Source of the DNA: Takakia lepidozioides
Taxonomy: Eukaryota; Plantae; Bryophyta
DNA: 64,000 bases
NCBI GenBank assembly: GCA_030704615.1
Contig: CM060734.1
Coordinates: 50,716,001-50,780,000, forward strand
Direction of reading: 5' to 3'
Shown in pieces: positions 6,582 through 47,371 of this stretch. The notes under the pieces are model-generated. The model ran no database searches, had not been told where the DNA came from, and saw only the letters and a list, made by a program, of their open reading frames with translations. Within the stretch, counting starts at the first letter, position 1; every line of letters starts with the position of its first letter. A program made the position numbers and the translations under genes.

Positions 6582-6583
6582 GT

Positions 6584-11597: not shown

Positions 11598-11652
11598 GCA
11601 AGTCCAAGATCTTACCGCTCCTCGAGGAACTCGGCGCTAGAGGAGGGGGTGA

Positions 11653-12640: not shown

Positions 12641-15600
12641 ACTAGAAGTAGGTAATTCTAGTTAACCATGACTAAAACCATGACAGCTGTCGTGCACCTA
12701 AGCATCGTGCCACAACATACATCGCTGTCCACCATACATTCTAAGCACACAATCCTAGAAAACTATGCCACAATCGCCCCCCTAGCTGGTGATTAGTATC
12801 TAAAGTCAATAGATCAAGAGGCCGGGTGCAAAAGTAGCCCCATCGTTACTCGCCTTCCTGCAATCCATTATCTTCAATTAAGTATCCATGGCGTTGAGCT
12901 CCTATTCCACCATTGTCATGCCCACTACCTATGTCCAAGGCATCGTGGACACAACCATTCTCCACTAGGAACCTCCTCAAGTGGCGGTGTCAAGCATCCC
13001 ATGTGTCACCCCCTTGAGCATTTGTCACACACCAACATGGTCGCGGCACCACCAGCATGCCCACATAGCATGCAACGCAACCCTGCAGCTACCACTGCAA
13101 GGTTGGGATCTATCCTCCCATCCACATGTGGAAGGTGACATGGCGTACAATTGCGCACATGGTCCTTCCATACCATGCCATCTCGACCCTCCAGAATCAA
13201 CACTCCTGAAGGCAACACCTCCCGGACCCTTAGAATCACACGCCCTGCTGTGACATCCAAAGTCGTAGGCGCTGTCTGCTGCAGATACACATAGTCCCTA
13301 GGGTGGAAACGCCGAACACCTGGCCGATATCCCCCTCCACGTATAGTGGCGTACCTCAGTGTGTCTCGGTGTTGGGCAATAGCAAGGTTCTCAAAAGCCA
13401 TAGGCATGACTCTCTTGAACAACTCTGCCCGTTGGGCACATGCTTGTGTCTACACATCCGGATCATCAAGGTTGAGAACTACTGTAGTCTCCCTGCGAAT
13501 AGATGCAGGCAAATCTGGCTCTCGGCCAAAGAGAAGAAAATAAGGCGAGAACGAGGCAAGTGATGTTTATTTGCTAAACCTATAGTCCATGGCCAACCAG
13601 GTAGCTGAAGGTCCCAATCTCCTAAGTGTCCCTTCTGCAAGCCATACTTGCGCAAGCCTCGCTTGACTGTTTGTACAACCCTCTCTGCCATGCCATTAGC
13701 CTCGGGATGATCCCGAGAAGTAGTGCGGTGATCTATCAAGGCTTGCTCACACAAAGCCTGAAACTCCCCCAAGAACTCTCTCCCCTGGTCCGTGAGTACT
13801 TCGGCTGGAGCACCAAATTGGCTAAGCACTCGATCTAAGAATGTATACGCAGCCCTTTCACTTGCCTTGTCAGGCAATGCCACTAGTTCAATCCACTTGG
13901 AGAAATGTTCCACCATCACCAGCACATACTTGTTATGGCGAATCGTTAGTGGCAATGGACCTGCGAAGTCAAGACTTCAACGATAGCCCAAACCCATAAT
14001 GGGTAAAGGATGCAATTGTGGAGTAGGTGCATTGAAAGAAGCTCGCACTCTATCACACACCATGCACCTTGCCACTAATTGTTGCACATCCGTGTGCATG
14101 CCCCCCCCCACCAATACTGTCCTTGCAGCAAACTATGAGTGCGCCGCACCCCAAAATGTTCCAACTCCTCATGGGCATGGCGTACCAATCGCGCTCGTTG
14201 TGTTGGATGAGGCACAATCCTCACTCGTCCATCCTCCCATACTCGGAGTAGGTGAGTCCCCTCCTACTTGAACCTCTTGGCTCGTTGTAGGATCCGATCT
14301 CTCATTGAAGTGGTTGATGGAGTCAGACAAGCTTATAGGGAAGCTTGCACGGTGGGCACTTATGCTTCAAGAATACGACTTTCAGGTGGTGCATCGAGCC
14401 AGTATTGTCAATCGGGATGCAAATGGATTGAGTCATAATCCATGCACGAGCGAGCATGATGATACTGGAGCTTGGTGGCATGGTGAGACGGATGAGGAGA
14501 TGGTGCCAGGATGGCATGCATCTACATTTTTGTGCATCCTAGCAATGGGAGCTCAAGCTGGTCCATCCCATAGCATTGGTCATGTCGATGGTGTACATGA
14601 CGATCCGAAGATCAATGAGGAGCTTGGTGGTGCTAAGGATGTACATGACGATGCAGCAGTGTTGGCCTACCTTCGTACTAGAGAGACATCAGCCAATGTG
14701 AGTGAAGAGATTGCCATAGAGGTAACATCTGAAATGTGCCACTGCCCATACCGCAGCTAGACACTCCCCTTCATAGGAACTATACTTCGCCTCGGCATCA
14801 TTGTTTGAGCGGCTACCATATGCCATTACAAACTCTCTTCCCTCATCATCCACCTGTGTGAGCACTACTCCAATCCCCAACATACTTCAATCCGTATGTA
14901 GTTGGAAAGGCCGCCTCAGAATAGGTGCAGAAGTCAATCGAGCCTTGAGTTCCTCAAAGGCTTCCTCCTGCTCCTCCTTCCACTGTCACTCCTGACCCAC
15001 CTTGGTTAACTTAGTAAGAGCCTTTGCAATACTGCTAAATCCCTTGACAAACCATCGATAGTAGTTTGTCAACCCCATGAAAGCATGAACTCTGCTAACA
15101 TCTATGGGGCATGGAATGCGTGCAATGGCCTCCACCTTCGTCTTTTGAACACCCAATCCTCCGGGGTATATCATGTGGCCTAGATACTCAATCTAGTTGT
15201 GGAAGAACTTGCACTCCCCAGGGTGCAATTTCAACCCATGCGCTCTCAAGCGCTCAAACACCACCTGAAGGTGTCTCTCATGCTCCTCAACCGTAGCACT
15301 AAAGACAATAATGTCATCAATGTAACACCGGGCAAAGTCTAGCCCCGCGAGAATCCTATCCATAACCCTCTGAAACTCTGCAGGAGCATTCTTCAACCCA
15401 AATGGTAGGAAGCGCCATTGGTACAAGCAATCATTCCCATGTTGATCAATCCCCCAGAATGTCGTCTTTTGCTTGTCAGCCTCTTTGATTGGCAACTGGT
15501 GGTAACCGGATCACAAGTCCAATGTGCTAAACACCTTTGCATGCCCAATGGCATCAAAGATTTCCTCTGGAGTTGGCATGGCATATCTATCGGACTTAGT

Positions 15601-16399
15601 CTGACGGTTCACAGGACGATAGTCCCCACACATCTTTCTTTCTGTCCAATTGCCATAGATATCCTTCTTAGCTGACATCACCGTTGCCGAGGCATACTCC
15701 CCGCCTGACAACTCCACCAATTCAGCTTCGAACAACTCCATAGTCCGTGACTGGATCAATGACCTCTCCATGTCACTATACCGGTAGGGCCTTCGAAAGA
15801 TTGGCGTGTCACTTGCCAAATCAATACGAATCTCCTGACCCTTCAAACTCCCCAAATCCTTCAAACCGAAGACAAAGCAATTTCTATAAGCCCTTAGAAA
15901 TCGCTGGATCCTCCGTCTCTCTCCTCCGGTGACTATAGGTCCAACATTTGGTTCCCAATTGTCCTCAGTGACTGCAACCTTGGGTACATCAGGCTTGGAG
16001 GTAGGAGACGAATCATTGCTAGATAGCAACCTCTTGGGCCTTGTCCGCCCAATCTGACTGTGGCGTAGCCTCCACTTGCTCTGCCATAACCACCTTGAGA
16101 ACATCCTCTGGGGAAGAAACATTCTCAACCTCTTCAAAAACATTGGTCACCTTGGCCTCCAACTGATCTTCAGTGTATGGCTTTCCCCACTCCTCATATT
16201 GTTGCTTGAGAGATCCAATGACTCTCTCTTTCCGCATCTCAGCCCACATCTGCCATGGGTGTTTGCACCCCATGATCCTGTGCTCGCCCCCACTCACTGC
16301 CTCAACCATCCCGGTTGGCAGAGGGGATACAATACCAAATGGGAGTACAGAAGTAGCCACCACTGTCTGCAACCTCCGTTGATCAGCCATGCACAAGCC

Positions 16400-17345
16400 A
16401 ATGACCCATGTTAAGCAATTTAGATCCATTGCTTGACCCAACACATGTCGGCGTGATGCCTCTGACAGAGCTGGCACAGCTGTAGTGCCCGTGGCAAATC
16501 CCATTGCCCGCTCTCGCTCATCTGCATTGGGCTCCACCAATTGTTGTAGCACACTGTCCCAAATCAACCCAGGACCATTGTCTCAAAAAACATGAGACGA
16601 GGGAAAGCTCATGAGCGTAGGCAAGGCCGCACGTGGCTGCCCCACTCGATTTACCACTGCTAGAGGTGGACGGTTATCATGTCGCACCCTTTGTGGTTGC
16701 CTCCCTTGGTCCAAAATGCCCTCAACTGTGAGATTGGGTGGCCGTTGAATGGAATCGTATGCTCTCTTGAGCAGCTCTGGTGGTGCAAGATTGGTCCACC
16801 ACAATCGAGGTCGATGCGCTCGTGATCCCACCGCTGCTACATCCAATAGCACCGCCGATCCAATCCAAGACCGCACCTGATGCACACTGGCCATAACCCT
16901 GGCCCGAGAGTCCCCCATAAGAGGAACATTCTCCAAGATATATGCTAGAGGTTGCACTTGCCTCATCTGCAAGTCACGCACATACTCTCAACATCTCCCA
17001 AAATAAATGCGATCGTGCATCATGCAAGCCGTTCCCATGACCCGCGGGAGAGTGTCCTTGGCAAGGCTATCCTGCTATCACCAAGTCAATGGCACCATGC
17101 CGGTCCAAATCATCCGCCCCCAGCAAGTTAATGTCTACTGGCAAGGCCTTTTGATACCCTTGAATTGCTGGGAGAGGCAACAACTCAGGATACCGGTGTA
17201 TGAGCAAGGCGATGTGGCGCATAGAAATACGCCGAGCTATCTCATCCTTCTCCACATATAAGTACTTGCGTACTTTAATCCCAGCTTGCAACACTCCTGC
17301 AAGCCCAGTGCTCATGCCTCCAAACAGGTCTAGTAAACAAATCCC
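16400..17345 (-). pseudogene. DNMT3-like C5 cytosine methyltransferase domain in copy 1
   Basis: LDLFGGMSTG (motif I), DLVIAG*PCQG (IV), YILENV (VI), AHRPRLWWTNL (VIII), ERERAMGF (IX), RRHVLGQAM (X). Confidence 0.9.
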
Positions 17346-19270
17346 TGATTCAGGTGGTTGCCAGGTAATGGGCACTGTATCCAAAGGAGCTAACTGAGGA
17401 GGTCCAGGTGATGTCACTAAACTCCCCTCACCCACCAATGGATAGGCCTCCTGTCATGCTTGGTGCACACACTCGCCTGCTACTCGATGCAAATTCCTAA
17501 CTGTACCCCACAGTGGAATATGAACAGACACATGAGGATGCAAATCAGCCTTGTATGCCAATTGTTTGTCCTCATCAGGTGGTGGCCTATCATCTGCATG
17601 GCTATTGCCCTCCAAGAGCTCACCACCCCAAGCCACCACCCCTGAGAATGCAGCCAATGTGGGCATCATGTTCCTATGATCCACCGCTACATTCCCAATA
17701 AACCGCACTGGGAGCAGTGCACGTCGACCATCCCCTGACTGCCATTCCGGCCTGTAGGATGCCGTTTCCTCCCAAAAGTCCAAAGTAAAGCCCATCGGGT
17801 ATAACACAGCCCCACCAACAAGCACATCATAAGACATCGCGTCCGTAACAATGGCTTTAGCTCTCATGACAGAGCCATCTGTAGGATGATCTGGCTGCAA
17901 TCAAATGAAGAGCTCATGGCTTGTAATCCCTCGTGCCTTCTCTAAACCGCCCAAAGATGTTTGAATTTGGAAAGGGCAAGGCTCCAAATCCGCCTCTGTA
18001 AGACCCAAGCGTGCAATTGTTGCTCTCCCCAACATCAATGGCTGTGCTCCCGAGTCCAACAAGACCCGCAGTGGCCTATACCTCCTCCTGGCTGGGCCAC
18101 CCAACTTAAACACATCATCCTGATTGTCCACCAGGACTACCCCAGGAGTCACCATACTACGCTCAATGGCTGGTCTAGCTGGCAACTCTTGCAACCTTGT
18201 AGCTGTCGCTTGCCACGACGCAGCTGTGGCTATCTTCACCCTTGAATCCAGGGCATCCATGCACTGCACCTGATCCGCTATCCCCGCAGATAGTGCCAAT
18301 GCATCACCACTCTCACAGAGTCTAGCTGCCAGTCTAAACACTGCAACTGGCCGCATCCCCGACATTGCAATTGTCGTGGCAGAAAACAATAGAGCTTGGC
18401 AAATTGCCGTAGCCGCCCCCAACAATGTACTGGCTGCACCTTGCTTTGCAGCACCACCCACTGGCATTTCCCGAGCCACACCAACTCTCCCCAATGACAC
18501 TCGTGGCTCTACTTCTGACACACTTGGGCGAGCGGGTGTCATCGATGACATAGTTGGCACTGTCTCAGCCAATGTGAAAGACTGTGGAAGCCTTGTCTGC
18601 CGACTTGCTTCCCCTCTTTGTGGATCAAAATCCACATTCGCTCCTCTTGGCTCAGGAACACGCGTTGCTGCTCGAGTGACAGCAGCTGCAGAGTCCACAT
18701 GCAATGGTCCTGCAAGTGCGGCTCCACACATGAAGCCCATACCAATCTGGTCTTCCCTAGACATATGAAGTTATGCAGGTGGGGCTTGAACCTCAAGCCT
18801 TGGAGCTGGTGCAACATGAGTAGTGGCCATGGCAGCAAGACGTTGCTCTAGCTGGGCAAGTCTATCCACCATGCCTTGGTCATAATCTTGACCTTGACCA
18901 TGTGCTCCTTGGTTTTGGTTATGTCCTCCACCCCGACCTCTGGCTCCTCTACCTCTCTGGACTACATTGCCTCGTCCTCGGCCACCTTTGTTCTCTTGGA
19001 ACTGGCCTGGCCGTAGCTCAGGATGTAAGTCATAACAATGGGTCTCTTCATGCCCATACTTGCCACAATGCCCACATTGTAGTTGTGTAGGTTGTGCCTG
19101 TGCCGGCCCTTTGCCTCTCTCCGGGCAATCTCTCTTAAGGGTCCTCCACAATCCCAACAAATCATACTTGACTGTTGTTGGCCTGAGAATGAAGGAAATG
19201 ACCTATGCAATTGAGATCCTCTCGGCCCTTCCCTGGGCTTTGCCTTAGCCCCCTTGTTGCCTTGAGCACG

Positions 19271-20113
19271 CACTACAACAGATCGCGGTAGTTATGACTG
19301 CCAAACCATGGTAGTCATGGTTTTCATGACTTTGACCATGACTGCACCATGTTTTTATATGAAATTGACCTCCCGCAGTCGTTCATACGACTGTAGTCAT
19401 ATGAACGACTATCTAAGTAGTCGTCTGTGTGACTACATGGCTCCGGAATGGGCGGAAGGCTGGTCAACGGCAATTGACCAAATTTAGCTCACCATTCATA
19501 GTCATTTCCATGACTACAGTGTACATGGATGAGGTTACGTAGTCATGATGACTATCGGGGATTTTGTAATTTGGTGTGTATAATACAATTAAAACACCAT
19601 ATGATCATATGAATGACTAATGGGTGTATTGGTTAACAGGTAGAGAACTATAACTCTTATAGTAAAGAGGTTGCAGGTTCAAACTCCTCTAAGTACAATC
19701 AAATGGAGAAGATGGTCTTAGGGTTAGTAGGCGAGCTAGGTATAGCACGTGGTACCCTAGATGGACTGCCACGTGGTTTTTTCATTATTATAAAATGCAT
19801 TATGTCACGTGGCACAATGCGGTGCGACGCGGCGTTTGACATATGTTTTTATTTTTTTAGTTTTAATTTAATTTAATTTAATTTTCAATTGCGCCTCGCC
19901 ACGTGACGCGGCAGCGGCGGCTACAGTATAGTATATATGACTGCAGTGAGAGATATCACTTGGTTCATCTTACTGTAGTTATCCGGACCGTACCATTCTA
20001 TACTCATTGTATTGACTTGGTATACATGACTTACAGTCATAGAAGTCATATGTACCGTTATAACTGCAAAATAGTCATATATACAGTCATAAATACCGCG
20101 ATCTGTTGTAGTG
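19271..20113. mobile_element. Non-autonomous CACTA element (843 bp) inserted in copy 1 gag
   Basis: TIR CACTACAACAGATCGCGGTA perfect over 20 bp (29/30 extended); 3-bp TSD ACG; many atgact/agtcat subterminal repeats. Removing it restores QQQPLPQRAQGNKG. Confidence 0.95.
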
Positions 20114-21246
20114 ACGTTGGGGTAGTGGTTGTTGTTGGCTAGGAGTCCCACTTCGTTGTGTCTCCTGACCAAATCCCACCATGACCACTCGCTCCTCCAC
20201 CATATTGAGCTCTATCCGCTCTGCCAGCAAAAACACATTTGCTAAGGTGGGTTGGGCCATTTGTAGGAGAGTTGCATCCCGCACCCTTCTCCTCAACTCC
20301 TTGTCCAATATCCCATACCAGAATTGGACTGCTTGAGCTTCCGTAACTCCTTGGGTTACATTTATCAATCGCCTCATGCGCGTGTAAGCCTCCCTTAAAC
20401 TCTCGGCAGATATTCGTTGGAACTCTCGCAAACTCCGCAATTTCTCCGTCCTTATCCCGTGGTAGTTTCTCTTTAACTCCTCGAAAAACTCCACAACTGG
20501 GTTAAAGGCAGGCACGGGTGTTGGTGCTGCAGCAGGAACTTGGGTGGACTTCCCAGCTCTTGTTCCACTTGACGTCCCACTGCTGCTTGCAAAAGCTGCC
20601 GGTGTAGCTGCCAGTGTCACCACTACCCTTGTGCCTCTAGTGATGGAGACATAGTCGGTGACCAATACACCTGTCATTCCTCAATCTCCACCTCATGTCC
20701 CCGCCTAAACTCATGGTAGTTATCCATGGGCGGCCCCTCAAGGTGCTGAAACAGCCCCTTCCACGCCATAAAAGGCGTAAACAGTTGTGGATTGCGCATC
20801 TGCTGCAAATCACACCAACTATCAAATTCCTATATGAAATCATCAAGCTCGATGGTGCCCACAACTCCAGAGTACCGACGTGGCCCCTTGGTAGCCCCTT
20901 GGTAGCTCTATACATTTCCTCCATTGTATCCCACAACAATGGCACGGAAATGGCTTGCACCCTCGGCGAGAATCCTCCTAACTCTAAGTCTGAACCTTCC
21001 TTAGAAGACACTGAAGGTGAAGGTGGCCTAAACCGCATACCTCGTCTTGTATACCCACTAGTATCGCTGGTGCTCGTACCGGCACTCTCCTCAGCAACTG
21101 GTGGCACCTCCGTGATGAAAACTCACAACCACACCTGTTATAAACCTGTCTCTAATCCCCATTTCCACAAGGTAACCTGGTAGAGAACCTGTTGCAGCTC
21201 ATGGCTTAGACTACTTAGGTTCGTAACATAAACCTGCACCTGCATC

Positions 21247-27635: not shown

Positions 27636-27980
27636 AGTGACAACAGTAGGTGTCAAACCTCACTTGGGACATGGGGATGGGTTTTCCCCTTGTGAGTGTT
27701 GAGGAGGGCTCATCTTCTTATAGTTGAGCCTCCATGAGCCGCTCCCACCTCCATAGCTCTAGGTATTGAGAGAGAGTGTGGTGAGGGCTTTGTAGGGTGG
27801 ATTCCTTTAGCAAAGGTGCCCTTGGCTTGACTTAGTTTATGTGATTGAGTGGATTCATGAGTGGAGTGTTTCCATTGTGTGTTCACTTCCATTATCACTA
27901 TTGTGGCATAGTTTTCTAGGATTGTGTGATTAGAATGTATGGTGGACAGCGATGTATGTTGTGGCACGATGTGCACGACA
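27636..27980 (+). mobile_element. Displaced 3' terminus (rest of A2 plus B2) of DNMT-PHD gypsy copy 1
   Basis: 27902-27980 is nearly identical to the reverse complement of 12688-12772 and ends GCACGACA. The upstream part carries the A hairpin ggctca-N12-tgagcc, cttggcttgactt and ttatca. Confidence 0.85.
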
Positions 27981-33900: not shown

Positions 33901-34291
33901 AGGTTTATTCGCCCTCCCACGGATTTGGGCGTTTCAGACACTCGTAAAACCTCGCCACCATTCCCACATGGCAGCGTGACTACTCTCTTGCGGCCATCTA
34001 TGACCGCTCCGGATTTGCTCAAAAAGGTCATCCCAAAATGAGATCCACTCCATCGATCTCGCAAATGGTGAAGTTCTCACGTCCATCCCAACTCCCCAGT
34101 TGAAGAGGAACATCAATCGCCAACCTTGTCACCAACTGTGGTTCTCCTTTGGCAGAACGCACCTCAATAGAGGCCCCCACGTCACTTGTCGGGAGTCCCA
34201 GCTTTTGTGCCGTTGCCGGTGTCATGAAGGAGTGCGACGCTCCTGTGTCCACCAACAACGACACATTAGTTCCGGATATTATCCCATCCAC
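30925..34291 (-). pseudogene. pol: pol of the host chromovirus (PR, RT, RH, INT, chromodomain)
   Basis: LLVDTGASHSF; YIDD; [10 protein letters not shown]; GHGG..C..C; SMDF; SDRDPKF; a frameshifted chromodomain reading EYLVKWKGY at ~31000-31150. Confidence 0.93.
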
Positions 34292-34806
34292 GAATAATAA
34301 CTGACTCCCTTTTCGTAAGGCGCCAGTTCCTGATACAACTCACAAGAAAATTTGCCTACCTTGCAAGTCCTGGCGACCACCGCTTCCACCAAGCGACTGA
34401 TGGTATCTTCCGACAGCTCCATGGTCGCCCGAGTCATGTTCAATTGCCGGGGCTTCGTGCACTTCTTGGCCATGTGCCCGGGCTCCCCGCAATTGAAACA
34501 CACTCCATCAAAGGTCGCCTTCTGTCCGCCATAAGCCGCTCCACCCGCTTTTCCTTTCGAAGCACCGGGTGCCGCCTTGACGTGTGAAGGCCCTCCCTTC
34601 GATTTCCACGTGCCATTATTGCCGCGTGGCCTATCCCACTTCTTTTCCGGTCGGAAGGAGTCACCTTCCCGCCGAATCTTCTTGTGGTTCAGCTCCGTAC
34701 GACCTTGTCTTTCACCCCTAGGGACATCTGAGAAACATTCAGCCCTCTCAATAGCCTCATTCAAAGTCTTGGGTGGTTTCTCCTCCAACTTCCGCCTGGC
34801 CCATGG
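34279..34806 (-). pseudogene. gag: 3' part of host chromovirus gag with CCHC knuckle
   Basis: CFNCGEPGHMAKKC; joins 45874-46641 in frame (GLA|PWARRKLEE) after removing copy 2 and one GGCC. Confidence 0.9.
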
Positions 34807-34810
34807 GGCC

Positions 34811-35137
34811 TGTCAAGTTATTTTACCACTAGTGTGAAACTAGCTAGGAAACAACTAGCTTTTACATATTGACATTTGGGATTGGCCCAAGTGTCAATCC
34901 AGGGGTCCAGGCAGATTTAAGCCCTGGAGTGGTTATCTTCACGGCAAGCGCGGGAGGCTCATCTTTCTCGAGTTGAGCCTCACCGCGCCTAGCTATGGCG
35001 CCGTAGTGTGGATTCCCCATGGCGTGGGGTGCACTTGGCTTGACTTGTATTTGAGTGATGAGGTTATATATGCATGAGTTTATGCTTCAGCTTTGTGAGC
35101 TCGCATGAGCTTGTGCTTGTATTCTTCTTCTTTATCA
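34811..35137 (+). repeat. Terminal repeat A1 (327 bp)
   Basis: Appears identical to 45358-45684. Confidence 0.95.
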
Positions 35138-36669
35138 CTCGAGAAAGATCAGCTCGTATCTGTGAGTGCCAGATACGAGTTAGTTGTAGCACTTGTGGTT
35201 TTTGCTTGAGAATGAGAGAAACCAAGTTGTTATGCAGGGAGCACCATGGAGCTCTTGGTTGTTAGAAGCGGAGGCGATGTGGGTTACGAGGTGGTAGACC
35301 TTGGCATTCGATCTTCAGCTTCAGAGATGAAAGCACCATGCTGCAGGTAATTCCAGAGCACCTTGAGGTTTCAGATTGTGTACATGCATGAGCAAGCACG
35401 ATTGGGAAGAGGACCAGTCAAGAGCAGGTTATAGTGGCTTTGGTGGCAAAGCTGAGAACTGGACCTGGGAATGCGAGCTTTCATTGTGTGAAGGATTGCA
35501 AGACCAAGCAAAAGGGCTGATTTGGCTTGGGGCAAATCAATGCACTTTGTGAAGTATGGTGAGATTGGGTTTCAATCTCGAGCTTCAGCATTGAGAGGGC
35601 TCTTGTCATGGCAAGAGCAGGGCTGGAACAGGAGCTAAGAGGTGCGGCAAGGCCATGGAATGTACACCTAGGGTTTCAGAGCTTGGAAGAAGAGCTCTTG
35701 CACCACAAGAGAAGTGTGTTGTGGCTGGAAATGTAAGCCTTAGGGTTTCAGGAGCTTGGCAAAGGTTGTGGAGTGCTTAGTCTTGTCTTAGAGAGCATCA
35801 AGGAGCCAAGGAGCCAAGATAGGGGGCTGATATCTCTTGTGTGAAGAGGTTGCATGTGTGGAGCATGTATTCAGCTCATTGAAGCTTCCATCTTCAAGCT
35901 TGGAGGGCAAGCAAGGAAGAGGGAAGGGCTGACTTCCCTTATGTGAGGGCAATGTATGTGTGGAGCATGCTATCAGCCTGGTGAAGGCTTGCACTTTTAG
36001 GTGTGGGAGTGCAAGAAAGGAAGGAAGGGGCTGGTTACCCTGTAGGGCATGTAGAGCATGCTTTCAGCCTGCTGAAGCTTGTAATTTCAGGTTTGTGGGT
36101 GCAAGAAATGAAGCAAAGGAGCTGATTCTCTTATGGTGAGGGTGGGGCATGTATGGAGCATGCCTTCAGCCCATTGAGGCTCTTGTTTTCAAGCCTTAGA
36201 GAGCTAGAACGGAAGGTCTAGGGCTGGTTTCCACTTGGAGTGAAAGAAAAGCACTTGTAGGGCCTATGTGAGTTGGGGTTTCAACTTCAAGCTTGAAGGG
36301 AGCGCAACTCTTGAAGCAACAGGTGTAGAGGGCTGGAATAGGCTCTAAGACAGATGCTATGGCCAATGAGAGTGCTTGAATGAGTGCTCATAAGGGCTGG
36401 GAACCAGCAGGGCTTGGTTGTTTGCCATTGAGTTTAGTGGCGTGTTTGGGGAGGCTAAGTGAGAAAGAAGGCTTGGTTTGTGGCAACCACCTCCTGGCTT
36501 AGGGCTACTATGGTGGTGTGTGGGAGCCGAAAGAGCAAGGATACCTTGCTGATTTCCTCATAGCCACCATAGCTCGGTGGAAAGAAGCCTAGAGTCCAAG
36601 AGACACAAACCCTAGCTTGGCGTGGCTAAACCCTTGGAGAAATGGCTAAACTGCCAGAGCGGCCATGTG

Positions 36670-37460
36670 TGGGGCTGTGACAGGCTGTGGCGAGCTGTGA
36701 CGGGCTGTGAGGGGCTGTGACAGGCTGTGGCAAGCTGTGACAGGCTGTGATGGGCTGTGCCCTGTGGCCTGTGGGGCTGTGACGGGCTGTGACAGGCTGT
36801 GATGGGCTGTGATGGGCTGTGACAGGCTGTGACAGGCTGTGCCCTGTGCCCTGTGGGGCTGTGACGGGCTGTGTCAGGCTGTGACAGGCTGTGCCCAGTG
36901 GCCTTTGGGGCTGTGACGGGCTGTGACAGGCTGTGGCAAGCTGTGACAGGCTGTGATGGGCTGTGATGGGCTGTGACAGGCTATGCCTTGTGCCCTGTGG
37001 GGCTGTGAGGGGCTGTGACAGGCCGTGCCTGAGGCCTTTGAGGCTGTGACGGGCTGTGAGGGGCTGTGACAGGCCGTGCCCATGGCCTTTGGGGCTGTGA
37101 CGGGCTGTGAGGGGCTGTGACAAGCCGTGCCTGAGGCCTTTGAGGCTGTGACGGGCTGTGCCTGAGGCCTTTGGGGCTGTGACGGGCTGTGAGGGGCTGT
37201 GACAGGCCGTGCCTGAGACCTTTGGGGCTGTGACGGGCTGTGCCTGAGGCCTTTGGGGCTGTGACGGGCTATGCCTGAGGCCTTTGGGGCTGTGACGGGC
37301 TGTGTGGGGCTGTGACAGGCCGTGCCTGAGGCCTTTGGGGCTGTGACGGGCTGTGAGGGGCTGTGACAGGCCGTGCCTGAGGCCTTTGAGGCTGTGACGG
37401 GCTGTGAGGGGGCTGTGGCAGGCCGTGCCCAGTGGCCTGTGGGACTGTGACGGCTGTGAC
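36670..37460. repeat. Minisatellite of ~10-bp units (ggctgtgaca/g) with higher-order structure, in the copy 2 leader
   Basis: Directly visible. Antisense ORF 36626-37639 runs through it. Confidence 0.9.
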
Positions 37461-37764
37461 CAGTGAGCTGTGTGGGCCTGTGCTGGTCTGTGGTGGCCCG
37501 TGTTGACCTGTGGACGGCCTGTGCTGACTCGTGGAGGCACTGGTGGACTGCCTAAGGACTGGCATGTGGTCTGGAAGGCCGAATTTTGAAGCTCGTGGAG
37601 GGCGGTTTGAGGAGTATCTTCATGATATTCCATGGTCATGCAAGTACAGGTGTAGGCTATGTTAGGAACTTAGTATTCCAAACCATAAGCCGCAACAGGT
37701 TCTCTACCCGGTTACCTTGTGGAGAGGGGGTTAGGGACATGTTCATGACCGGTTGAGTGTCAAC

Positions 37765-39214
37765 ATGGAGGTGCCACTAGTTGCTGGGGACAGTGCCGGT
37801 TCGATACTAGTGGGTACACGAGACGAGGTGTACGGTTTAGGCCACCTTCACCTCCTATGTCTTCCACGGAAGGTTCTGATTCGGATTGTGAATCAGGAGG
37901 ACTCATACCGGCGGTGCAAGTTGTTCTTTGCCATTGTTGTGGGACACAATGGAGGAGATGTATGGAGCTACCAAGGGGCCACGAAGGTACTCTGGGGCGG
38001 TGGGCACCATCGAGTTGGATGATTTTATCCAAGAGTTTGATAGTTGGTGTGATTTGCAGCAAATGCGCAATCCACAACTATTTACGCCTTCATGGCATGG
38101 AAAGGGCTGTTTCAGCACCTTGAGGGGCCGCCTATGGATGATTACCATGAGTTCAGGCGGGGGCATGAGGTTGAGATCGAGGAGTGGAGGATGTACTGGT
38201 CACCCGACTATGTCTCCATCACTAGGGGCACTAGAGCCACGAGGGCAGTGGCTACACCTGCCGCTGCACCGGCAGCTTCAGCAAGTAGCAGTGGGACTGG
38301 TGGTACAGTAGCTACGACGTCCACCCAAGCCACTACCGCACCAGCACTAGCACCCGTGCCTGCCTTCAACCCTGTTGTGGAGTTCTTCGAAGAGTTGAGA
38401 GGGAACTACCAAGGGGTGAGGACAGAGAAGTTGCGGAGCTTGCAAGAGTTCCAACGGAAGCCGACCGAGAGCTTGAGGGAGGCTTTCATCGCATGTAGGC
38501 GGAAGCTTGATATAACCTGAAGCGGGAAAGTTAGTGTGTTTGCTGGCAGAGCGGATAGAGCTCAACATGGTGGAGGAACGAGTGGTCATGGTGGGATTTG
38601 CTAAGGAGACACCACGGGGTAGTGGTGCTCCTAGCCAACCACTACCTCAACGTGCTCGAGGCAACAAGGGGGCTCAGGTAAAGCTCAGGGAAGGGCAGAG
38701 AGGACCTCAGATGCAGGGGTCTCTCCCTTCATTTGCTGGCCAACAACGGGCGGATGTGGTGTGCTGGACATGTGGAGGACCCCATGCCAAGAAGGATTGC
38801 CTAGAGGGAGGCAAAGGGCCGGCACATGCACAGCCTGCACAGTTGCAGTGTGGGCATTGTGGCAAGCACGGGCATGGAGAGGCCCAGTGTTATGGTTTGC
38901 ATCCTGAGTTGCGCCCAGGCCAGTTCCAAGGGAACAATGGTGGCCGGGGGCGAGGTGGAGCAGCCCAGAGAGGACGAGGTGGCCAGCCACGAGGTGCAGG
39001 CCAAGGGCAAGCTCAACGTGGCCAAGGACGCGGAGGTCAGGGTGTTGACCAAGGCATGGCCAACCGGCTTCAGCAGCTAGAGCAGAGGCTCGCTGCCATG
39101 GCTACAGCTCAGGTGGTACCAGCTCTAAGGCCGGATGGTCCACCTCCTGCTCCTGAGGGAGGAGATATGGGAGGCATGGGATTCATGTGTGGAGCAGCAC
39201 TACCACTAGTGTAG
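37765..39214 (+). pseudogene. gag: gag of copy 2 with two zinc knuckles
   Basis: CWTCGGPHAKKDC and CGHCGKHGHGEAQC plus an RGG-rich tail. Frameshifts and an internal deletion near 38490-38535 relative to copy 1. Confidence 0.8.
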
Positions 39215-39699
39215 GTGGAGTCTGCTGCAGCCATGACTCAAGGAGTAGCACGAGTTCCTGAGCCACGAGGTGCAGAGGTGGAGTTGGATCCACAGCGTGG
39301 GGAGGCAAGCCGTCAGGCTAGGCTTCCTCAGTCATTCACATTGGCGGAGACAGTGTCGACGCCATCCATGGCACCTAGTTCTCGCCCGACTGTTACCGAG
39401 GCGGAGGTTACTATGCCATTGGGGAGAGCTACACGGGTAGCACCACTACCTAGTGTTGCCAAGGCTACGGCAGCTAGTGTGCTGTTAGGAGCGGCCACAT
39501 CTGTGTGCCAGGCTCCATTGTTCTTGGCTACCATGATTGCTGGCAGCTACACTCTGTGAGAGTGGGGAGGTTACTTCATCTTCTGTGGAGATAGTGGGAG
39601 GTGTAGTGCCAGAGGGATCCTCGGATTTGAGGGTCAAGACTGCCACGGCGGCGCCATGGCAAGCTGCAGCTGCCAGGTTGATGGAGCTGCCAGCTAGGC

Positions 39700-40120
39700 C
39701 AGCTATTGAGCGCGCCATGGTGACACCTGGAGTTGTCATGTTAGACAACCAGGATGACATTTTCTGTTTGAGTGGACCGGCAGGCAAGAGGTACCAGCCA
39801 CTGCGGGTCTTGTTGGACTCGGGAGCTCAGCCACTGATGCTGGGCAGAGCTGCTATAGCAGGCTTGGGCCTCACGGAGGCGGATATGGAGCCTTGTCCTT
39901 TCCAGATACAGACGTCTCTGGGAGGATCGGAGCAGGGTCGGGGCATGACACGGCATGAGTTGGCTATCAGACTACGGCCGGATCACCCTACAGATGGCTC
40001 GGTGATGTGAGCCAAGGCCATTGTGACAGACGCAGTCTCATACGATGTCCTGGTGGTGGGGCAGTGTTGTACCCCATGGGCTTCACCCTGGATTTTTGGG
40101 AGGAGTCAGCTTCCTATAGG
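39700..40120 (+). pseudogene. Aspartic protease domain of copy 2
   Basis: VLLDSGAQ...YDVLVG. Confidence 0.85.
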
Positions 40121-40524
40121 CCTGCATGGCAGTCAGGGGAGGGCCGGCATGTGCATTTCCCTATGACGTTCATATGAGGAGTTGCGGTTGCCCAGCGAGG
40201 CAAGATGCCGACACTAGCAGCATTCACAGCGGCAGTGAGTTGGCCTAGAGAGTTGCTTGAGGGCAATGCTCATTCAGAGGATGTACCACCTCCGGGAGAG
40301 CAGGATGACATGTATGGTATGGCGGAGTTGCCTACCATGGTTGCTCAGACTCCATTGTGGGGCACGAGCAAGGATTTGCAGCGGGATGCTGATCGACGGG
40401 TGCAACAAGCCTGGGTGGAGGCTTTTGTACCGTCAGGAGAGGAGGAGAGTGTGGGGATTGCACCAGGACCACCTCAATTGTCTCCATTGGACACCACACC
40501 TATTGTGTGGCAGTATCCGGATGA

Positions 40525-41480
40525 AGGCATTTGTCTTCTGGACTTGTTTGGCGGGATCAGCACCGGATTGGCTGCTGTGTTACAAGCAGGTGTACGAGTT
40601 CGGCGTTACCTGTATGTGGAGAGGGATGAGACTGCACGACGCGTTTCACTTCGCCATGTTGCTCAGTTGGTGCAGCGATACCCTGAGTTGTTGTCGGTGT
40701 CTGCAATTCGTGGATATCAGCAGGCCTTGCCAGCAGACATTTCGTTGCTGGGGGCGCAGGATTTGGAGCGGGTTGGCTCCATTGATCTGGTAGTGGCAGG
40801 TTGGCCCTGCCAAGGCATTCATCAGCCGGGCATGGCAATGGATTGCAAGACTCGAGGTCGGGTCTGTTTTGGGAGATGGTGCGGGTTTTGCGCCACTTGC
40901 AGCTTCATCAAGCTGTATCTCCAGCATACATCTTGGAGAATGTGCCACTGATGGGCGATTCTCGGGCCAGGGTGATGGCCAGTGTGCATCAAGTCCGGTC
41001 GTGGCTTGGGTCAGCAGTGTTGCTAGATGCAACTACAGTGGGGTCACGGGCTCATCGTCCACGGCTATGGTGGACTAACTTGATGCCACCCGCACTGCTC
41101 AAGCGTGCATTTGATGGGGTGCAGCGGCCAGCACATCTCACAGTGGATAACATTCTGGACACAGGGAGGCAGTCTCAACGTGTGAGACACGATGACCGTT
41201 CGCCTTTGGCAGTGGTCAACAAGGTGGGTCAACCACGAGCAGCATTACCTACACTGCTCAGCTTCCCAGGATCGCATGCTTTCCGGGATAGTGGACCCGG
41301 CCTCCTGTGGGATGCTCAGTTGTAGCAGTTAGTGGAGCCTAATGCTACGAGCGTGAGCGGGCAATGGGTTTTACCACTGGTACCACGGCGGTGTCGTCTC
41401 TTTCTGAGGCATCACGTCGTCAAGTGTTGGGGCAAGCAATGGATCTCAATTGCTTGACCTGGATTATCAGCTTGGCTCTG
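40525..41480 (+). pseudogene. DNMT3-like C5 cytosine methyltransferase domain of copy 2
   Basis: LDLFGGISTG, YVERD, DLVVAGWPCQG, YILENV, AHRPRLWWTNL, ERAMGF, RRQVLGQAM. 1-bp frameshift just after PCQG. Confidence 0.92.
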
Positions 41481-41849
41481 GCTGAGCAACGCAGAGTGCG
41501 GAGTACACTTCCCTCAATGGTCTCTCTGCCTACCGAGACGGTACAGGCAGTGAGCGGGGGCGAGCATGTGAGGACCACGGGGTGCATGCATCCATGGCAC
41601 ACGTGGGAGGTGCTCGAGGTTCAGAGGGAGTTGGCAGCCAAGGCGGCTGTGATGGATGAGGTTGGGGATTCTTCTCGGGTTGAGGAGGTCCTCAAGGATG
41701 AGATGATGAGGCAGGATGAGGCCTTGTCATTGACTGAGCAGGCAAGGAGTACTGCTCAAGAGGTTGCAACATAGCAACCATTGGACGCGTCCTCTACCTC
41801 TAAGCCCACTGGACTTAAGGTTGCAGTTACGGAGGACAATTGGGAGCCT

Positions 41850-43270
41850 AACATTGGACCCATTGTCACCGGAGGAGAGAGACGACGTATACGGCGGTTC
41901 CTGAGGGCTTACAGGAATTGCTTTGCCTTCAGTTTGAAGGACTTGGGAGCACTGAAGGGTCAAGAGATCCGTATTGAGTTGGCCACTGACACGCCAATCT
42001 TTCGGAGACCCTATAGATACAGTGACATGGAGAGGTCTTTGATTCAGATGAGGACTCAAGATCTCTGGGAGGCAGGTTTGGTGGAGCTCTCTGGTGGAGA
42101 GTATGCTTCAGCCACAGTGATGCCAGCCAAGAAGGATGTCTATGGCAATTGGACGGAGAGACGTATGTGCAGTGATTACCGGCCTGTAAATCGTCAGACC
42201 AAGTCCGATAAGTATGCCATGCCAACACCAGAGGAGATCTTTGATGCCATCGGGCATGCTAAGGCCTTTAGCACTTGGATTTACTATCCGGATATCACCA
42301 ATTGCCAATCAAGGAGTTGGACAAGCAGAAGACGGCATTCTGGGGGATCAATGAGCACGGCAAGGATTGCCTATATCAGTGGCGGTTCTTACCATTTGGG
42401 CTAAGAATGCTCCTGCAGAGTTTCAGAGAGTCATGGATAGGATTCTAGCAGGGGTGGACTTTGCTCGGTGCTACATAGATGACATCATCATCTTTAGTGT
42501 TACGATGGAGGAGCATGAGAGACACCTTCAGGTGGTATTGGAGCGCTTGAGAGCGCACGGATTGAAGTTGCATCCGGGGAAGTGCAAGTTTTTCCACAAC
42601 CAGATTGAGTATCTGGGTCACATGATATATCCTGGAGGATTGGGGGTACAGCAGACTAAGGTAGAGGCCATTGCACAAATTCCACGCCCCACGGATGTGA
42701 GCCGAGTTCGAGCTTTCATGGGGTTGGCAAACTATTATAGACGGTTTGTCAAGGGATTTAGTACCATTGCAAAGGCTCTAACCAAGCTGACCAAGGTGGA
42801 CCAGGAGTGGCAGTGGGAAGATGAGCAGGAACGAGCTTTTCAAGAGCTCAAGGCGAGGTTGACCTCGGCGCCTATCTTGAGACGACCTATCAGGGGGCGT
42901 CCCTTTCAGCTGCATACGGATTGGAGCATGCTGGGGCTTGGAGCGGTACTCACACAGGTGGATGATGAGGGAAGAGAGTTCGTAGTGGCTTACGCTAGCC
43001 GCTCGAGCAACGCTGCAGAGGCTAAGTACAGCTCATATGAGGGAGAGTGCTTAGCTGCAGTGTGGGCCGTGGCACACTTCAGGTGCTATCTATACGACAA
43101 TCTTTTCACCCTTGTCACGGATCACCAGCCACTCAAGTGGTTGATGGAGTCAGACAAGCTTACGGGGAAGCTTGCACGGTGGGCTCTTATACTCCAGAAG
43201 TATGACTTTCAAGTTGTGCATCGACCGGGTTTGGTCAATCGGGATGCGGATGGATTGAGTCGCAATCCAT
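41850..43270 (+). pseudogene. pol: Reverse transcriptase and RNase H of copy 2
   Basis: DYRPVN, YIDD, LHTDWS, YEGECLA, VTDHQPL, DADGLSR; frameshifts near 42280 and 42400. Confidence 0.93.
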
Positions 43271-43659
43271 GCATGAGCCAGTAGGATGACACTGGAGCTC
43301 GGTGGCATGGTGAGACGGACGAGGAGATGGTGCCGGGATGGCACGCATCTGCATTTTTGTGTATCTTGGCATCGGGAGGTCAGATTGGACCTACAACAGG
43401 GATGACTGTAGACGGAGTGTCTGAGGACCCTGAGGCTAGTGATGAGCTAGGTGGTGCCAGAGATATACATGAGGATTCGGCTGTGTTGGACTACCTCCGC
43501 ACGGGAGACACGGCAGCCATTGTGACTGCCAGGGAGAGGGATCGGATCCTGCAACGAGCCAAGAGGTTCAAGTGGGAGGGGATACACCTACTTCGAGTGT
43601 GGGAGGATGGTCGGGTAAGGATTGTGCCTCACCCCACACAGCGTGCACGGTTAGTGCGG

Positions 43660-44907
43660 CATGCCCATGAGGAGTTGGGGCATTTTGGAGTGCGACGCAC
43701 TCACAGTTTACTGCAGGGGTAGTATTGGTGGCGTGGTATGCATACAGAGGTGCAACAGTTCGTGGCTAGGTGCATGGTGTGTGACAGGGTGCGTGCTTCA
43801 TTCAATGCCCCTACACCACAGTTGCATCCTTTACCAATCATGGGATTGGGCTACAAGTGGAGTCTTGACTTCGCAGGACCGTTGCCACTGACTATGCGCC
43901 ACCACAGATATGTGTTGGTGATGGTGGAGCACTTCTCCAAGTGGATTGAGTTGGTTCCATTGCCTGACAAGGCTAGTGAGGGGGCTGCGTATGCATTCTT
44001 GGATCGTGTGCTTAGCCGATTTGGTGCTCCAGCTGAGGTACTCACGGACCAAGGGAGAGAGTTCTTGGGGGAGTTTCAGGCTTTGTGTGATAAAGCCTTG
44101 ATAGACCACCGCACCACTTCTCGGGATCATCCTGAGGCCGATGGCTTAGCAGAGAGAGTTGTTCAGACGGTGAAGAGGGGGTTGCGCAAGTATGGCTTGC
44201 AGAAGGGACACCTAGGAGATTGGGATCTTCAGGTTCCTTGGTTAGCCATGGGCTACAGGTTCAGCAAACAAGCATCACTTGCCTCCTTCTCACCATATTT
44301 CCTTCTCTTTGGCCGAGAGCCGGATTTGCCTGCAGCCATTCGTAGGGACACTGCTCAAGTCCTTAACCTTGACGATCCGGACGTGTGGGTACGTGCATGT
44401 AATCAGCGTGCAGAGTTGTTCAAAAAAATCATGCCCATGGCTTTTGAGAACCTTGCCATTGCACAGCACCGTGATACGTCGAGGTATGCCACTATACGTG
44501 GTGGAGGATATCGTCCTAGGGTTCGGAGGTTTAGCCCTGGTGACTATGTTTATTTGCAGCAGACTGCTCCTACGACTCTGGATGTTACTGCAGGGCGTGT
44601 TATTCTGAGGGTTCGAGAGGTGTTGCCCTCAGGGGTCCTGATCTTGGAGGGTCGGGATGGCATGACTTGGAAGGACCATGTGCGTAATTGTGCGCCATGT
44701 CACATTCCCAATGTCGATGGCAGAGTTGACCCAAACTTGGCAGTGGTACCTGCAGGTTTGAGGTGCATGCTCTGTGGGTCTGCCAAAGGGGCAGCCACCA
44801 TGCTGGTGTGTGATCGATGCTCAAGGGGTTGGCATATGGGATGCGTGACACCACCTCTTGAGAAGGTTCCTGACGGAGATTGGTTGTGTCCACACTGCTT
44901 GGGATAG
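43660..44907 (+). pseudogene. DDE integrase with C-terminal PHD finger
   Basis: H....GHFG...C..C; SLDFAGP; LTDQGREF; DGLAERVVQ; PHD CMLC...CDRC...WH..C...P...VP.G.W.CPHC (44764-44898). Confidence 0.93.
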
Positions 44908-45152
44908 TGGCAGTGGACATGACTGGAGGCAGCTAACAAGACATGGGAGGCCAAGCTCATAGGAGTCAATACATGAGATCCCAAGCTCAAGTTCACAGGT
45001 TGCAAGACGGCGACTAACGATGGGGCAACTCTTGCATCCGGCCTCTTGATCTATCGAGTTTGAGTGTAGTAGGGATAGTGGTGGAGGACTTAGTGAGGCT
45101 ATGGTCACTATCACATCGTGTGGCTACCTGGACTTAGAGGGACCTAAGCACC

Positions 45153-45165
45153 AGCTAGGGGGGCG
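45153..45165 (+). promoter_or_regulatory. Polypurine-tract-like plus-strand primer site
   Basis: agcta followed by a G-run and cg, then AT-TG at the start of B1. Conserved in copy 1 (12775-12787). Confidence 0.8.
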
Positions 45166-45167
45166 AT

Positions 45168-45873
45168 TGTGTGGACTAGTGACTGCCATAGTGGGCAGCA
45201 TAGTGGCAGCCTAGTGACTGACTAGTTGTAGCCTAGTGGTTGGACTAGTGGCTGGACTAGTGGTGGACTAGTGGTATACTAGTGTGTGGTGTGCACATGT
45301 GTTGTGTGGTTTTGGACAGCGATGTAGTTGTGTAGCGATATGTATGCGCACGACAGCTGTCAAGTTATTTTACCACTAGTGTGAAACTAGCTAGGAAACA
45401 ACTAGCTTTTACATATTGACATTTGGGATTGGCCCAAGTGTCAATCCAGGGGTCCAGGCAGATTTAAGCCCTGGAGTGGTTATCTTCACGGCAAGCGCGG
45501 GAGGCTCATCTTTCTCGAGTTGAGCCTCACCGCGCCTAGCTATGGCGCCGTAGTGTGGATTCCCCATGGCGTGGGGTGCACTTGGCTTGACTTGTATTTG
45601 AGTGATGAGGTTATATATGCATGAGTTTATGCTTCAGCTTTGTGAGCTCGCATGAGCTTGTGCTTGTATTCTTCTTCTTTATCATTGTGTGGACTAGTGA
45701 CTGCCATAGTGAGCAGCATAGTGGCAGCCTAGTGACTGACTAGTTGTAGCCTAGTGGTTGGACTAGTGGCTGGACTAGTGGTGGACTAGTGGTATACTAG
45801 TGTGTGGTGTGCACATGTGTTGTGTGGTTTTGGACAGCGATGTAGTTGTGTAGCGATATGTATGCGCACGACA
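45168..45873 (+). repeat. B1-gc-A2-t-B2 terminal block
   Basis: B1 and B2 are 188 bp with one visible mismatch; A2 equals A1. Confidence 0.95.
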
Positions 45874-46641
45874 GGCCAGTCCCGCCACAAGGTTGAAGAC
45901 CATTTCTGGTTCTGCCATGTCCGCGACTTCGAGCAACAGCACATTGAAAGCCTGGACATACCCCCGAATGTCATCTGTTTGCTTCAAATTCCTCATCTTG
46001 TCCCGGGCAAGCCAGGACGCGTTGAGGGGCACAAACTGTCTCTTCATCAATTCCTTGAACCCACTCCAGTTCAAGGTTTCCGGGCTTGGACCTCGGTCGT
46101 GAAGGCGTTTCTGCCACCATTGTTGAGCATAGCCCCTCAAATAGGTGGGAGCCACTTCCACCCGATCCTCGTCACTCAACTTGGCCGCCCGGAAGTACTG
46201 CTCTAGCTCCAAGAGCCAGGTGTTGAGTGCCTTCCGATTTCGGACGCCCTCGAAGGTGCCGGGTTCTTTAGGCTTCACCTTAAACTTTGCCTTAGTGGAA
46301 GTGGCATTAGCCGCCTTCAACACGTCTTTCAACGTCCCGCCAAACTGCGCCAACAACCCTTCCCAAAAGGCTGCCGGCATGGGAGGCATCTCTTGGCTTG
46401 TTGGAGCTCTCAAGGATTCCTCGGGCTCCGACTCCTCGGATTCCTCCCGCTCTTGGGCGGCCTCGTTTTCGGAAACATGAATCGCTTCCTCAAACGGCCG
46501 CCTCGGTGACACGTCGCCCCCATCGGGCTCACCGGGATCATCATCTTTTGGGCCGTTCCGCTTTCGCTTCGGCTTGCCCGACCCCATGATGAGGCCAATC
46601 CCAAGGACGATCGCGTACTGAACTCTAAGCTCTGATACCAA
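45874..46641 (-). pseudogene. gag: 5' part of host chromovirus gag
   Basis: KPKEPGTFEG...WLLELEQYF...YLRGYAQQWW...LKQT. Confidence 0.9.
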
Positions 46642-46642
46642 G

Positions 46643-47371
46643 TGTCACGCATCTCACTTCGGTAAGCTCCCCTTCAAGTCATAGTTACTCGCTTTGATGC
46701 GCGCGCCTGACTCCCAACCTGGCCGCCCGGGCCAACTTGGAGCTTCGGCTGCTCACCGGGACATAACGGTCCCCCCTTCGCTTCCCTCTAAACCCTCCAC
46801 CTAATTGGGACTAGGAGAATTCCCTTTGGTAGATGGCAGTCCGGAACAGCTCCCCACTCTTTGGTCGCTTTCCGGCTCGCTCGCTTACTCACTAGTTTTT
46901 GGTCACCAATGGGCTTGCACCGTTCTCGGGGTTACTACTCCCTATATATACTTCTGTAGCTGTCCGCGGGGGTTCCACAACCAGCCATGCCATTTTATGG
47001 CGAACCACCACGAAAACCCTCGACTCCCGGTGATGAGTCGCGGTGAGTCTTGGCCCGCTCACCACGGCCCCTATGGACCGTGATGAGTCCCAAGACTCCC
47101 CACGACTCCCACCACGAGGTCTCCGCCCCCATGGTGAGTCCTATGCCACCCCCACTAAGTCCCGCTAAGCTACCACCACCCCTTGTGGAGCCACCCCCAC
47201 CGCAACCCGGTGTGCGGGGCTCCACCTAGTGAGCGCCTCCGCCTCCTTGAGTGCCTTGGGCACTCAAGTGTGCTTCAGCCCCCCCCATACCTATCGCTGC
47301 CGCTGCCCCCACCACAGGGGCAGCCCCTCATGTGTCCCGACCCCCTGCCCTCAAGGCAAAGGGCCGCGACA
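46643..47371 (-). repeat. 5' LTR of the host chromovirus
   Basis: Adjacent to the initiator tRNA-Met PBS. Confidence 0.95.

Follow-up and report, generated by a model that had tools for sequence, protein, structure and literature searches.

A DNMT3-like cytosine methyltransferase domain in a lineage of split-repeat Ty3/Gypsy retrotransposons of land plants and algae

Why would a retrotransposon carry a cytosine DNA methyltransferase between its protease and its reverse transcriptase, and what could the enzyme do there? The question is raised twice in the 64,000-nucleotide stretch of DNA analyzed here (the window), for which a preliminary description had reported DNA methyltransferase (DNMT) motifs in canonical order, at the same position in two gag-pol chains. 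Six-frame translation of both copies confirmed the order and the placement, with the motifs spread over broken frames in the following regions.

40523..41486 (+), DNMT3-type C5 cytosine methyltransferase domain of copy 1 with motifs I-X, broken by a stop and two frame changes
16382..17348 (-), the corresponding domain of copy 2, interrupted by a frame change and three stops

Copy 1 motifs start at 40541 (I, DLFGG), 40799 (IV, GWPCQ), 40933 (VI, LENV), 41050 (VIII, AHRPRLWWTN), 41349 (IX, ERERAMGF), and 41415 (X, RRQVLGQAM). The same set (I, IV, VI, VIII, IX, and X) follows in the same order on the minus strand in copy 2, so that motifs I-X are linear and unrearranged. The catalytic Cys of the PC motif, ENV, and RxR are retained in both copies despite the breaks. 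In copy 1 the frame shifts near 40820 and again near 41347, with a stop at 41323; in copy 2 it shifts once, near 16975, and of the three stops one is the codon immediately before PCQ. Such a motif set is far beyond chance.

The open piece at 40786-41325 scored above the Pfam cut-off for PF00145 (24.5 bits, E = 2e-5); five other pieces submitted from the two DNMT regions had no Pfam match individually. A protein search with the same open piece returned 32 proteins at E ≤ 1e-10 with 43-74% identity (best match 69%, E = 7e-73). The named proteins among them come from Marchantia polymorpha, Calypogeia fissa, and Riccia sorocarpa, and the cluster of one matched protein includes proteins of Sphagnum jensenii and S. 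troendelagicum. The earlier suggestion that such elements extend to land plants thus holds for these named proteins, which carry the lineage; for the window itself a nonseed land plant is the probable host, as suggested by fragments of PPR genes and by nearest relatives among bryophytes.

A family profile built from nine sequences placed DNMT3A first among PDB sequences (E = 4e-14), followed by DNMT3C and DNMT3B (5e-11 and 1e-10), with lower matches to a 357-amino-acid entry named “DNA methyltransferase” (5e-6), HaeIII (7e-5), and DRM2 (0.02). A single liverwort relative also had DNMT3A as its top match (E = 8e-11), and no DNMT1 was among the PDB matches listed for this relative or for the profile. 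The predicted structure of an open relative, metagenome locus L001 (pLDDT 71, pTM 0.76), matched DNMT3A best (TM 0.63-0.64, E = 2e-14). These sequence and fold comparisons used relatives (P0006, A2, and L001) rather than the broken window copies, and the protein atlas annotates the domain as PF00145 only. Both results favor the DNMT3-like assignment made at the outset; the window methyltransferase is of DNMT3 type, closer by sequence and fold to that type than to DRM, DNMT1, DNMT2, or bacterial enzymes.

The domain lies within a complete mobile element (copy 1), and the second copy lies in an older relative of it.

34811..45873 (+), copy 1, whole Ty3/Gypsy element of 11,063 bp with TGTC...GACA ends, inside the gag of another gypsy element
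34807..34810 (+), left target-site duplication GGCC, from empty-site contigs
45874..45877 (+), right target-site duplication GGCC, from empty-site contigs
34811..35137 (+), repeat A1, 327 bp, identical to A2 by sequence comparison
36672..37459 (+), tandem array of 10-bp units within the 5' leader
37949..39547 (+), gag region with zinc knuckles, frame-broken, located by tblastn with Marchantia protein P0008
39705..40174 (+), aspartic protease (LLDSGA), broken
41856..43281 (+), reverse transcriptase (RT) and RNase H, two frame changes, the lead in frame with the DNMT tail past the stop described below
43618..44346 (+), DDE integrase with an H2C2 zinc-binding part, one stop
44764..44898 (+), PHD finger at the Pol end (Pfam PF00628, E = 1e-10)
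45153..45166 (+), polypurine-tract-like stretch 5' of B1, common to copy 2 and related loci
45167..45355 (+), repeat B1, 189 bp, one difference from B2 by sequence comparison
45352..45361 (+), palindromic B1/A2 junction GACAGCTGTC, shared with copy 2 and two loci (L003 and L062)
45358..45684 (+), repeat A2, identical to A1
45685..45873 (+), repeat B2, one difference from B1
12682..21242 (-), copy 2, older sister-family member with 70-81% DNA identity and the domain order of copy 1

Copy 1 has the order gag-PR-DNMT-RT-RH-INT-PHD and, in place of a terminal LTR pair, repeats arranged as A1-coding-B1-A2-B2. Copy 2 retains the polypurine tract, B1, and the B/A junction palindrome; its 5' end and the remainder of A2-B2 were not found in the window, and its Pfam Retrotrans_gag match fell below the cut-off. 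About 400 bp of copy 2 (14308-14704, from the RNase H end to the start of the integrase linker) are inverted relative to the rest. An orphan A-B terminal remnant at 27651-27981 (+) has a B that is 92% identical to B1 of copy 2, starts with TGTC, ends with GACA, and is flanked by no matching duplication.

Copy 1 sits in the gag of an outer gypsy element (29347-47371, -) whose LTRs are 98.4% alike and whose family is present in high copy in sequencing runs. Nine contigs from a sequencing set (X1) of the organism holding this DNA join 34806 directly to 45874. Such empty-site contigs show that the insertion is real and young. Its mapped domains nevertheless contain seven frame changes and three premature stops; either a decayed donor was mobilized in trans to give copy 1, or the assembly has lost some single bases in error. 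Nine of 11 listed single-base differences are adjacent to homopolymers, and the two frameshifts in the copy 1 DNMT are missing from many family contigs (46 and 19 contigs in X1).

The repeats had suggested a DIRS or Ngaro element, an identity that we rejected: the element has an rve integrase and a 4-bp duplication, and no tyrosine recombinase family was found among the 45 ORFs scanned in the window. A 2-bp duplication, with ends read as CTGTC..GACAG, was likewise rejected since other insertions show TG..CA ends and 4 bp. Nor does the element conform to a chromovirus, as a PHD finger stands at the Pol end where the chromodomain would be. An Rfam scan of the window gave no match.

It is extremely unlikely that the domain is a recent neutral capture of a piece of host DNMT3, or an assembly chimera, although both window copies are broken. 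Between copies 1 and 2, dN/dS was 0.095 for the DNMT (confidence interval 0.058-0.149, 318 codons), beside 0.069 for RT, 0.062 for integrase, 0.12 for the PHD region, and 0.141 for gag. The window DNMT evolved under purifying selection, and neutral capture, which would have left a ratio near 1, is contradicted. Close pairs of decayed metagenome loci gave higher values (DNMT 0.40-0.45, RT 0.24-0.34), as expected where decay after insertion contributes. Synonymous sites are saturated when the window is compared with metagenome loci, so that dN/dS is rough or undefined there. The domain is also far from absent in other copies of the family. The 80 loci retained from a metagenome scan (L001-L080, the best of 105 confirmed) were all retrieved by way of the DNMT and have it in the same domain order wherever neighbors are present, and family contigs carry it at a depth similar to that of RT and integrase, these depths being sums over contigs and not a measure of copy number. 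Orthologous placement in algae is a further argument against capture from the host. Host DNMT3 of nonflowering streptophytes, as described in the available text of PMC6453930, shares the DNMT3-type catalytic domain and linear motif order and differs in having a C-terminal DUF3444; the element domain is free of introns, and no DUF3444 was found in the Marchantia protein P0008.

The preliminary description had the domain embedded in the polyprotein. It does lie between protease and RT, but a conserved in-frame stop parts it from RT.

41772..41777 (+), in-frame TAG followed by CAA at the end of the Gag-PR-DNMT frame, the TAG itself at 41772-41774
16019..16021 (-), the corresponding TAG of copy 2 at the aligned codon, with CAA next

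The stop lies 115 residues past motif X in copy 1 and 140 in copy 2, and the RT lead stays in frame over tails of 100, 114, and 115 residues. Proteins from Marchantia (P0008), Calypogeia (P0006), and Sphagnum (P0033) end 98 to 100 residues past motif X, and the nearest relatives of Pol stand alone as proteins of about 1,030-1,080 amino acids. The junction could be aligned in 59 of 82 sequences, which gave 54 distinct contexts: every one has a stop (35 TAG and 19 TAA), and in 53 the next codon is CAA; TAG-CAA also occurs in L035. No variant fell at 41770-41780 among the 40 of 52 family-contig variant rows listed. The 13 TAA rows on a 40-row tree represent at least 12 origins, at a rate (0.33) that matches the upper end of the values for CTA sites; because TAA is thus recurrent decay at a CTA site, we take TAG to be the working form.

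UAG-CAA is a leaky stop context of the tobacco mosaic virus (TMV) type. From the conservation of the stop it follows that the DNMT closes a Gag-PR-DNMT frame, and RT, RNase H, integrase, and the PHD finger are likely made by readthrough of the TAG. No stimulatory RNA structure was found 3' of the stop (fold z -0.6), and the literature searched held no match for the leaky UAG-CAA context. Re-initiation just past the stop is another way in which Pol might start: an ATG stands two codons after the stop in 49 of the 54 related contexts, but it is absent in copy 1. The TAG could also belong to a splice acceptor, with Pol made from spliced RNA. We had counted the 19 TAA variants against a splice acceptor and have dropped that argument, as they reflect recurrent decay at the CTA site. 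In algal relatives from Closterium (P0423) and an unnamed source (P0066), the DNMT runs into RT without a stop.

We postulate, with a probability of about 0.55, that this is an element of the KnitGypsy lineage that ends its Gag-protease-DNMT3 frame at TAG, makes Pol by readthrough, releases the methyltransferase in its particle, and methylates its own cDNA before integration. We infer the steps as follows. Ending the frame at the TAG would give the enzyme Gag-level dosage, and readthrough would add RT, RNase H, integrase, and PHD; the methyltransferase would be packaged and released inside the particle, where reverse transcription would be self-primed; and the enzyme would act on the new cDNA of the element before integration, with CG as its presumed target.

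The kind of element is known from the charophyte Klebsormidium nitens. In the available text of de Mendoza et al. 2018 (PMC5890265), KnitGypsy-Dnmt3 is an intronless, unrearranged DNMT3 in a Gypsy element with a DDE integrase, has A-coding-B-A-B repeats (Fig. 4c legend), and is under purifying selection. The window element shares the Gypsy order RT-RH-INT, the DDE integrase, and the lack of a tyrosine recombinase, and the ratio of 0.095 for the window pair falls within the KnitGypsy-Dnmt3 mark of Ka/Ks < 0.2. In KnitGypsy-Dnmt3, however, the DNMT and RT share one ORF (authors' reply to review), whereas in the window a conserved TAG stands between them; because of this difference we regard the window element as a variant of the KnitGypsy-Dnmt3 lineage and not as the same family. 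The host likely differs as well, being a land plant, and the window lineage has named relatives in three liverwort genera and in Sphagnum. A PHD finger, target duplication, and self-priming, as found or proposed for the window element, are without mention in the main text of PMC5890265, Fig. 4c apart.

We consider it very unlikely that the domain no longer methylates DNA and is kept to bind DNA or RNA or to methylate RNA. The K. nitens DNMT gave no methylation signal in yeast, which the authors regard as inconclusive in the text available of PMC5890265, and the tryptophan of GWPCQ, together with the GWECQ variant of many relatives, is unlike the DNMT3A loop. Against such a loss, most open relatives keep the SAM-binding, catalytic Cys, ENV, and RxR motifs, and the predicted fold is that of DNMT3. 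DNMT3s of Symbiodinium DIRS elements, according to the same paper, carry out de novo CG methylation in yeast, and cDNA self-methylation was proposed there for SymbioDIRS-Dnmt3. Those elements resemble ours in their A-coding-B-A-B repeats and element-borne DNMT3 (in Pol in SymbioDIRS); they differ in having a tyrosine recombinase and no DDE integrase, and they represent an independent dinoflagellate capture. EpiLTRs of Cymbomonas and Euglena (bioRxiv 10.64898/2026.05.21.726589) are also LTR elements with a cytosine DNMT and a chromatin reader. As far as the passages available go, their DNMT is sister to DNMT4 and accompanied by DAM and a chromodomain, and they are stated to be distinct from the streptophyte Gypsy-DNMT3.

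Copy 1 has two candidate replication signals.

34961..34973 (+), 13 nt of A1 that can pair with the primer-site position, likely the 5' end of the transcript
35137..35149 (+), primer-binding-site position directly after A1

The 13 bases that follow A1 complement 34961-34973 without a mismatch (13/13, against 0 of 2000 shuffles), and the region of A1 and the primer site folds with z -6.4. Pairing at the same offset is exact over 10-17 bases, with letters that differ from those of the window, in 9 of 23 loci that have an A start; in the remaining ones it is shorter or decayed. By analogy with Tf1/Tcn1 elements, the pairing likely reflects self-priming. In Tf1/Sushi and Tcn1 Gypsy elements, as given in the available text of PMC6317226, the primer site is likewise complementary to a stretch of the 5' repeat and not to a tRNA; those elements differ from ours in having ordinary terminal LTRs and a chromodomain.

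Because the polypurine tract precedes B and the primer site follows A, the working LTR would be B+A. The element ends would then be produced at the palindromic B/A junction, acting as an integrase attachment site within the B+A LTR, and opening of a two-LTR circle at this junction would yield A-coding-B-A-B, a model suggested by the anatomy of the repeats. Ten metagenome loci have both ends, five as A-coding-B-A-B and five as A-coding-B; seven of them have a perfect 4-bp target duplication, two have one with a single mismatch, and in one it is ambiguous. The A-coding-B forms may be assembly collapse.

An alternative hypothesis is that the DNMT is kept for the replication intermediate, where it might, for instance, direct integrase cutting by binding or marking the circle or the palindromic B/A junction, and not for epigenetic disguise. 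DNMT and split repeats do co-occur in K. nitens, the window, five loci, and the unrelated SymbioDIRS-Dnmt3, and the junction is a conserved palindrome containing a CWG site. Split-repeat DIRS elements without a DNMT exist, however, and four elements without a detected DNMT nest in the chlorophyte-type clade of the RT tree; we therefore consider this role quite unlikely.

The base composition of the copies offers indirect evidence on self-methylation. CpG observed/expected over RT-INT was 0.57 and 0.53 in the two DNMT elements, whereas the window's two other gypsy elements reach 0.97 and 0.91; the intervals do not overlap in this comparison of two against two. The depletion is not specific: the window background is 0.46-0.49, and four other retroelement stretches in metagenome loci range from 0.11 to 0.51. 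Among L001-L080, over the 1.3 kb before the stop, C-to-T decay was highest in CWG (0.24-0.26) and about 0.2 in CG, intermediate in CTC, CTA, CAA, and CTT, and near zero in CCH, CAC, and CAT. This context pattern is a fossil record of host methylation contexts.

The heavy decay in CHG, CG, and some CHH contexts might also be read as the work of a DNMT that is active after integration or in trans, on the insertion site, other copies, or host DNA, damping its own family or competitors. Production at Gag level would make the enzyme plentiful and independent of RT; in mosses, CHH methylation is laid down by the host DNMT3 (from passages of PMC10952607), and de Mendoza et al. raised a host-benefit reading in the text available. 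Host MET1, CMT, and DNMT3 would yield the same decay pattern, however; the domain is located in the protease-processed precursor of the particle; and selection on a transposon domain should favor its own progeny most directly. We regard activity after integration or in trans as unlikely and keep methylation of the new cDNA as the preferred reading.

Two residues before its zinc-binding histidine, the PHD finger lacks a tryptophan that is typical of H3K4me3 readers. It may therefore resemble readers of unmethylated H3K4, and such reading would suit targeting to silent chromatin.

How old the association is can be approached from its relatives. The metagenome scan was led by a query (P0045) that shares a 90% cluster with named Sphagnum proteins; because the loci come from few samples and include near-duplicates, we treat them as one or two families and not as independent hosts. 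A metagenome scan with one protein as the query gave no match, and a scan of viral contigs gave just five weak methyltransferase matches (E about 1e-4).

In an unrooted tree of 47 DNMT domains picked from 153 rows, with host DNMT3 and DRM left out and the bootstrap not fully settled, all 24 rows with the DNMT before RT lie on one side of a branch supported at 99/97; five of these 24 had no automatic architecture and were labeled from an earlier tree or by eye. On this side are K. nitens GAQ93235.1, Mesostigma viride, Closterium, Marchantia, Calypogeia, Sphagnum, and both window copies, with the two window copies as sister of a group that contains the bryophyte sequences. The grouping with K. 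nitens, represented by one named protein taken as element-borne from its gag-PR-DNMT content, is the reason for placing the window element with KnitGypsy-Dnmt3 and upholds the charophyte precedent that had been invoked for it.

The other side of the tree holds elements ordered RT-RH-DNMT-INT-PHD. Among 120 integrase relatives, the DNMT stands directly before the integrase in 62 and before RT in 3, and 55 have none in that ORF. Named examples of the position after RNase H come from Pleodorina starrii, Haematococcus lacustris, and Cymbomonas tetramitiformis; Pfam misses the DNMT domain in the first two. In the chlorophyte Gypsy-PHD polyproteins P0131, P0201, P0227, and P0155, a DNMT of the same lineage lies between RNase H and integrase, a placement in chlorophyte elements that was not found in the literature searched. 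A Pol of the same clade, P0394 (in the cluster of P0100), is labeled uncultured cyanobacterium; its source is probably a plant or alga whose DNA entered a metagenome bin.

In the RT tree, the window groups with Marchantia, moss-type loci, and Coleochaete, a Coleochaete scutata Pol being among the closest relatives; this tree does not resolve whether the position before RT or that after RNase H is ancestral. A single capture followed by a move within the polyprotein would be the simplest reading, the order of events being set by neither tree. In the available text, the 2018 paper assigns the capture seen in the charophyte element to the K. nitens lineage (PMC5890265). With liverworts, peat mosses, Closterium, and Mesostigma now joined by chlorophytes that carry the DNMT in the other position, the lineage looks old and widespread.

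Only tentatively do we extend this to an ancient Gypsy lineage that gained a DNMT3 before the chlorophyte/streptophyte split, kept it from then on, moved it within the polyprotein, and in land plants adopted a leaky stop that would allow packing at capsid level; such an element would self-prime, methylate its cDNA, and have its circle opened by the DDE integrase at the LTR palindrome. If this doubtful history were true, elements abundant in nonseed plants yet invisible to LTR finders would be a hidden source of de novo methylation.

We found no paper on the family in land plants or chlorophytes, on the stop, or on split repeats of the integrase type in a search that covered few subscription papers, and the names of the family occur in just two of the papers searched. 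Later papers of the de Mendoza group, in the passages available, attribute the element to “streptophytes,” and their supplementary trees may include land-plant sequences; the passages available of 10.1101/363937, PMC11244446, and PMC10952607 do not mention the element. The self-priming site of this family was likewise absent from the literature searched.

The combination of split repeats, DDE integrase, and target duplication points to an unusual integration route and accounts for why the family would be overlooked by structure-based LTR catalogues. Split-repeat elements are likely missing from REXdb because, according to the available text of PMC6317226, it was built from elements with 5' and 3' LTRs; neither “PHD” nor “methyltransferase” occurs in the main text of that paper. 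Surveys of plant DNMT3 genes may be confounded by element-borne domains, some of which are annotated as ordinary genes. Because open copies occur in Marchantia, where methylation mutants and transformation are available, self-methylation of cDNA is testable.

The remainder of the window holds other repeats and gene fragments. A chromodomain Ty3/Gypsy element at 5990-12273 (+) has ordinary LTRs (93.5% alike overall) and the order gag-PR-RT-RH-INT-SH3-chromo. An isolated RNase H ORF of non-LTR type (PF00075) at 28195-29076 (+) adjoins the LTR of the outer gypsy element. Duplicated, broken fragments of PPR genes, with motifs of PLS type, cluster at 22300-26800 (-) and 54600-55900 (+), and those near 55200-56700 are interleaved with pieces of a carbon-nitrogen hydrolase gene. 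An ORF at 59738-60508 (-) ends in a COX24_C-like basic tail, and its start matches 57235-57377 in inverted orientation at 89%.
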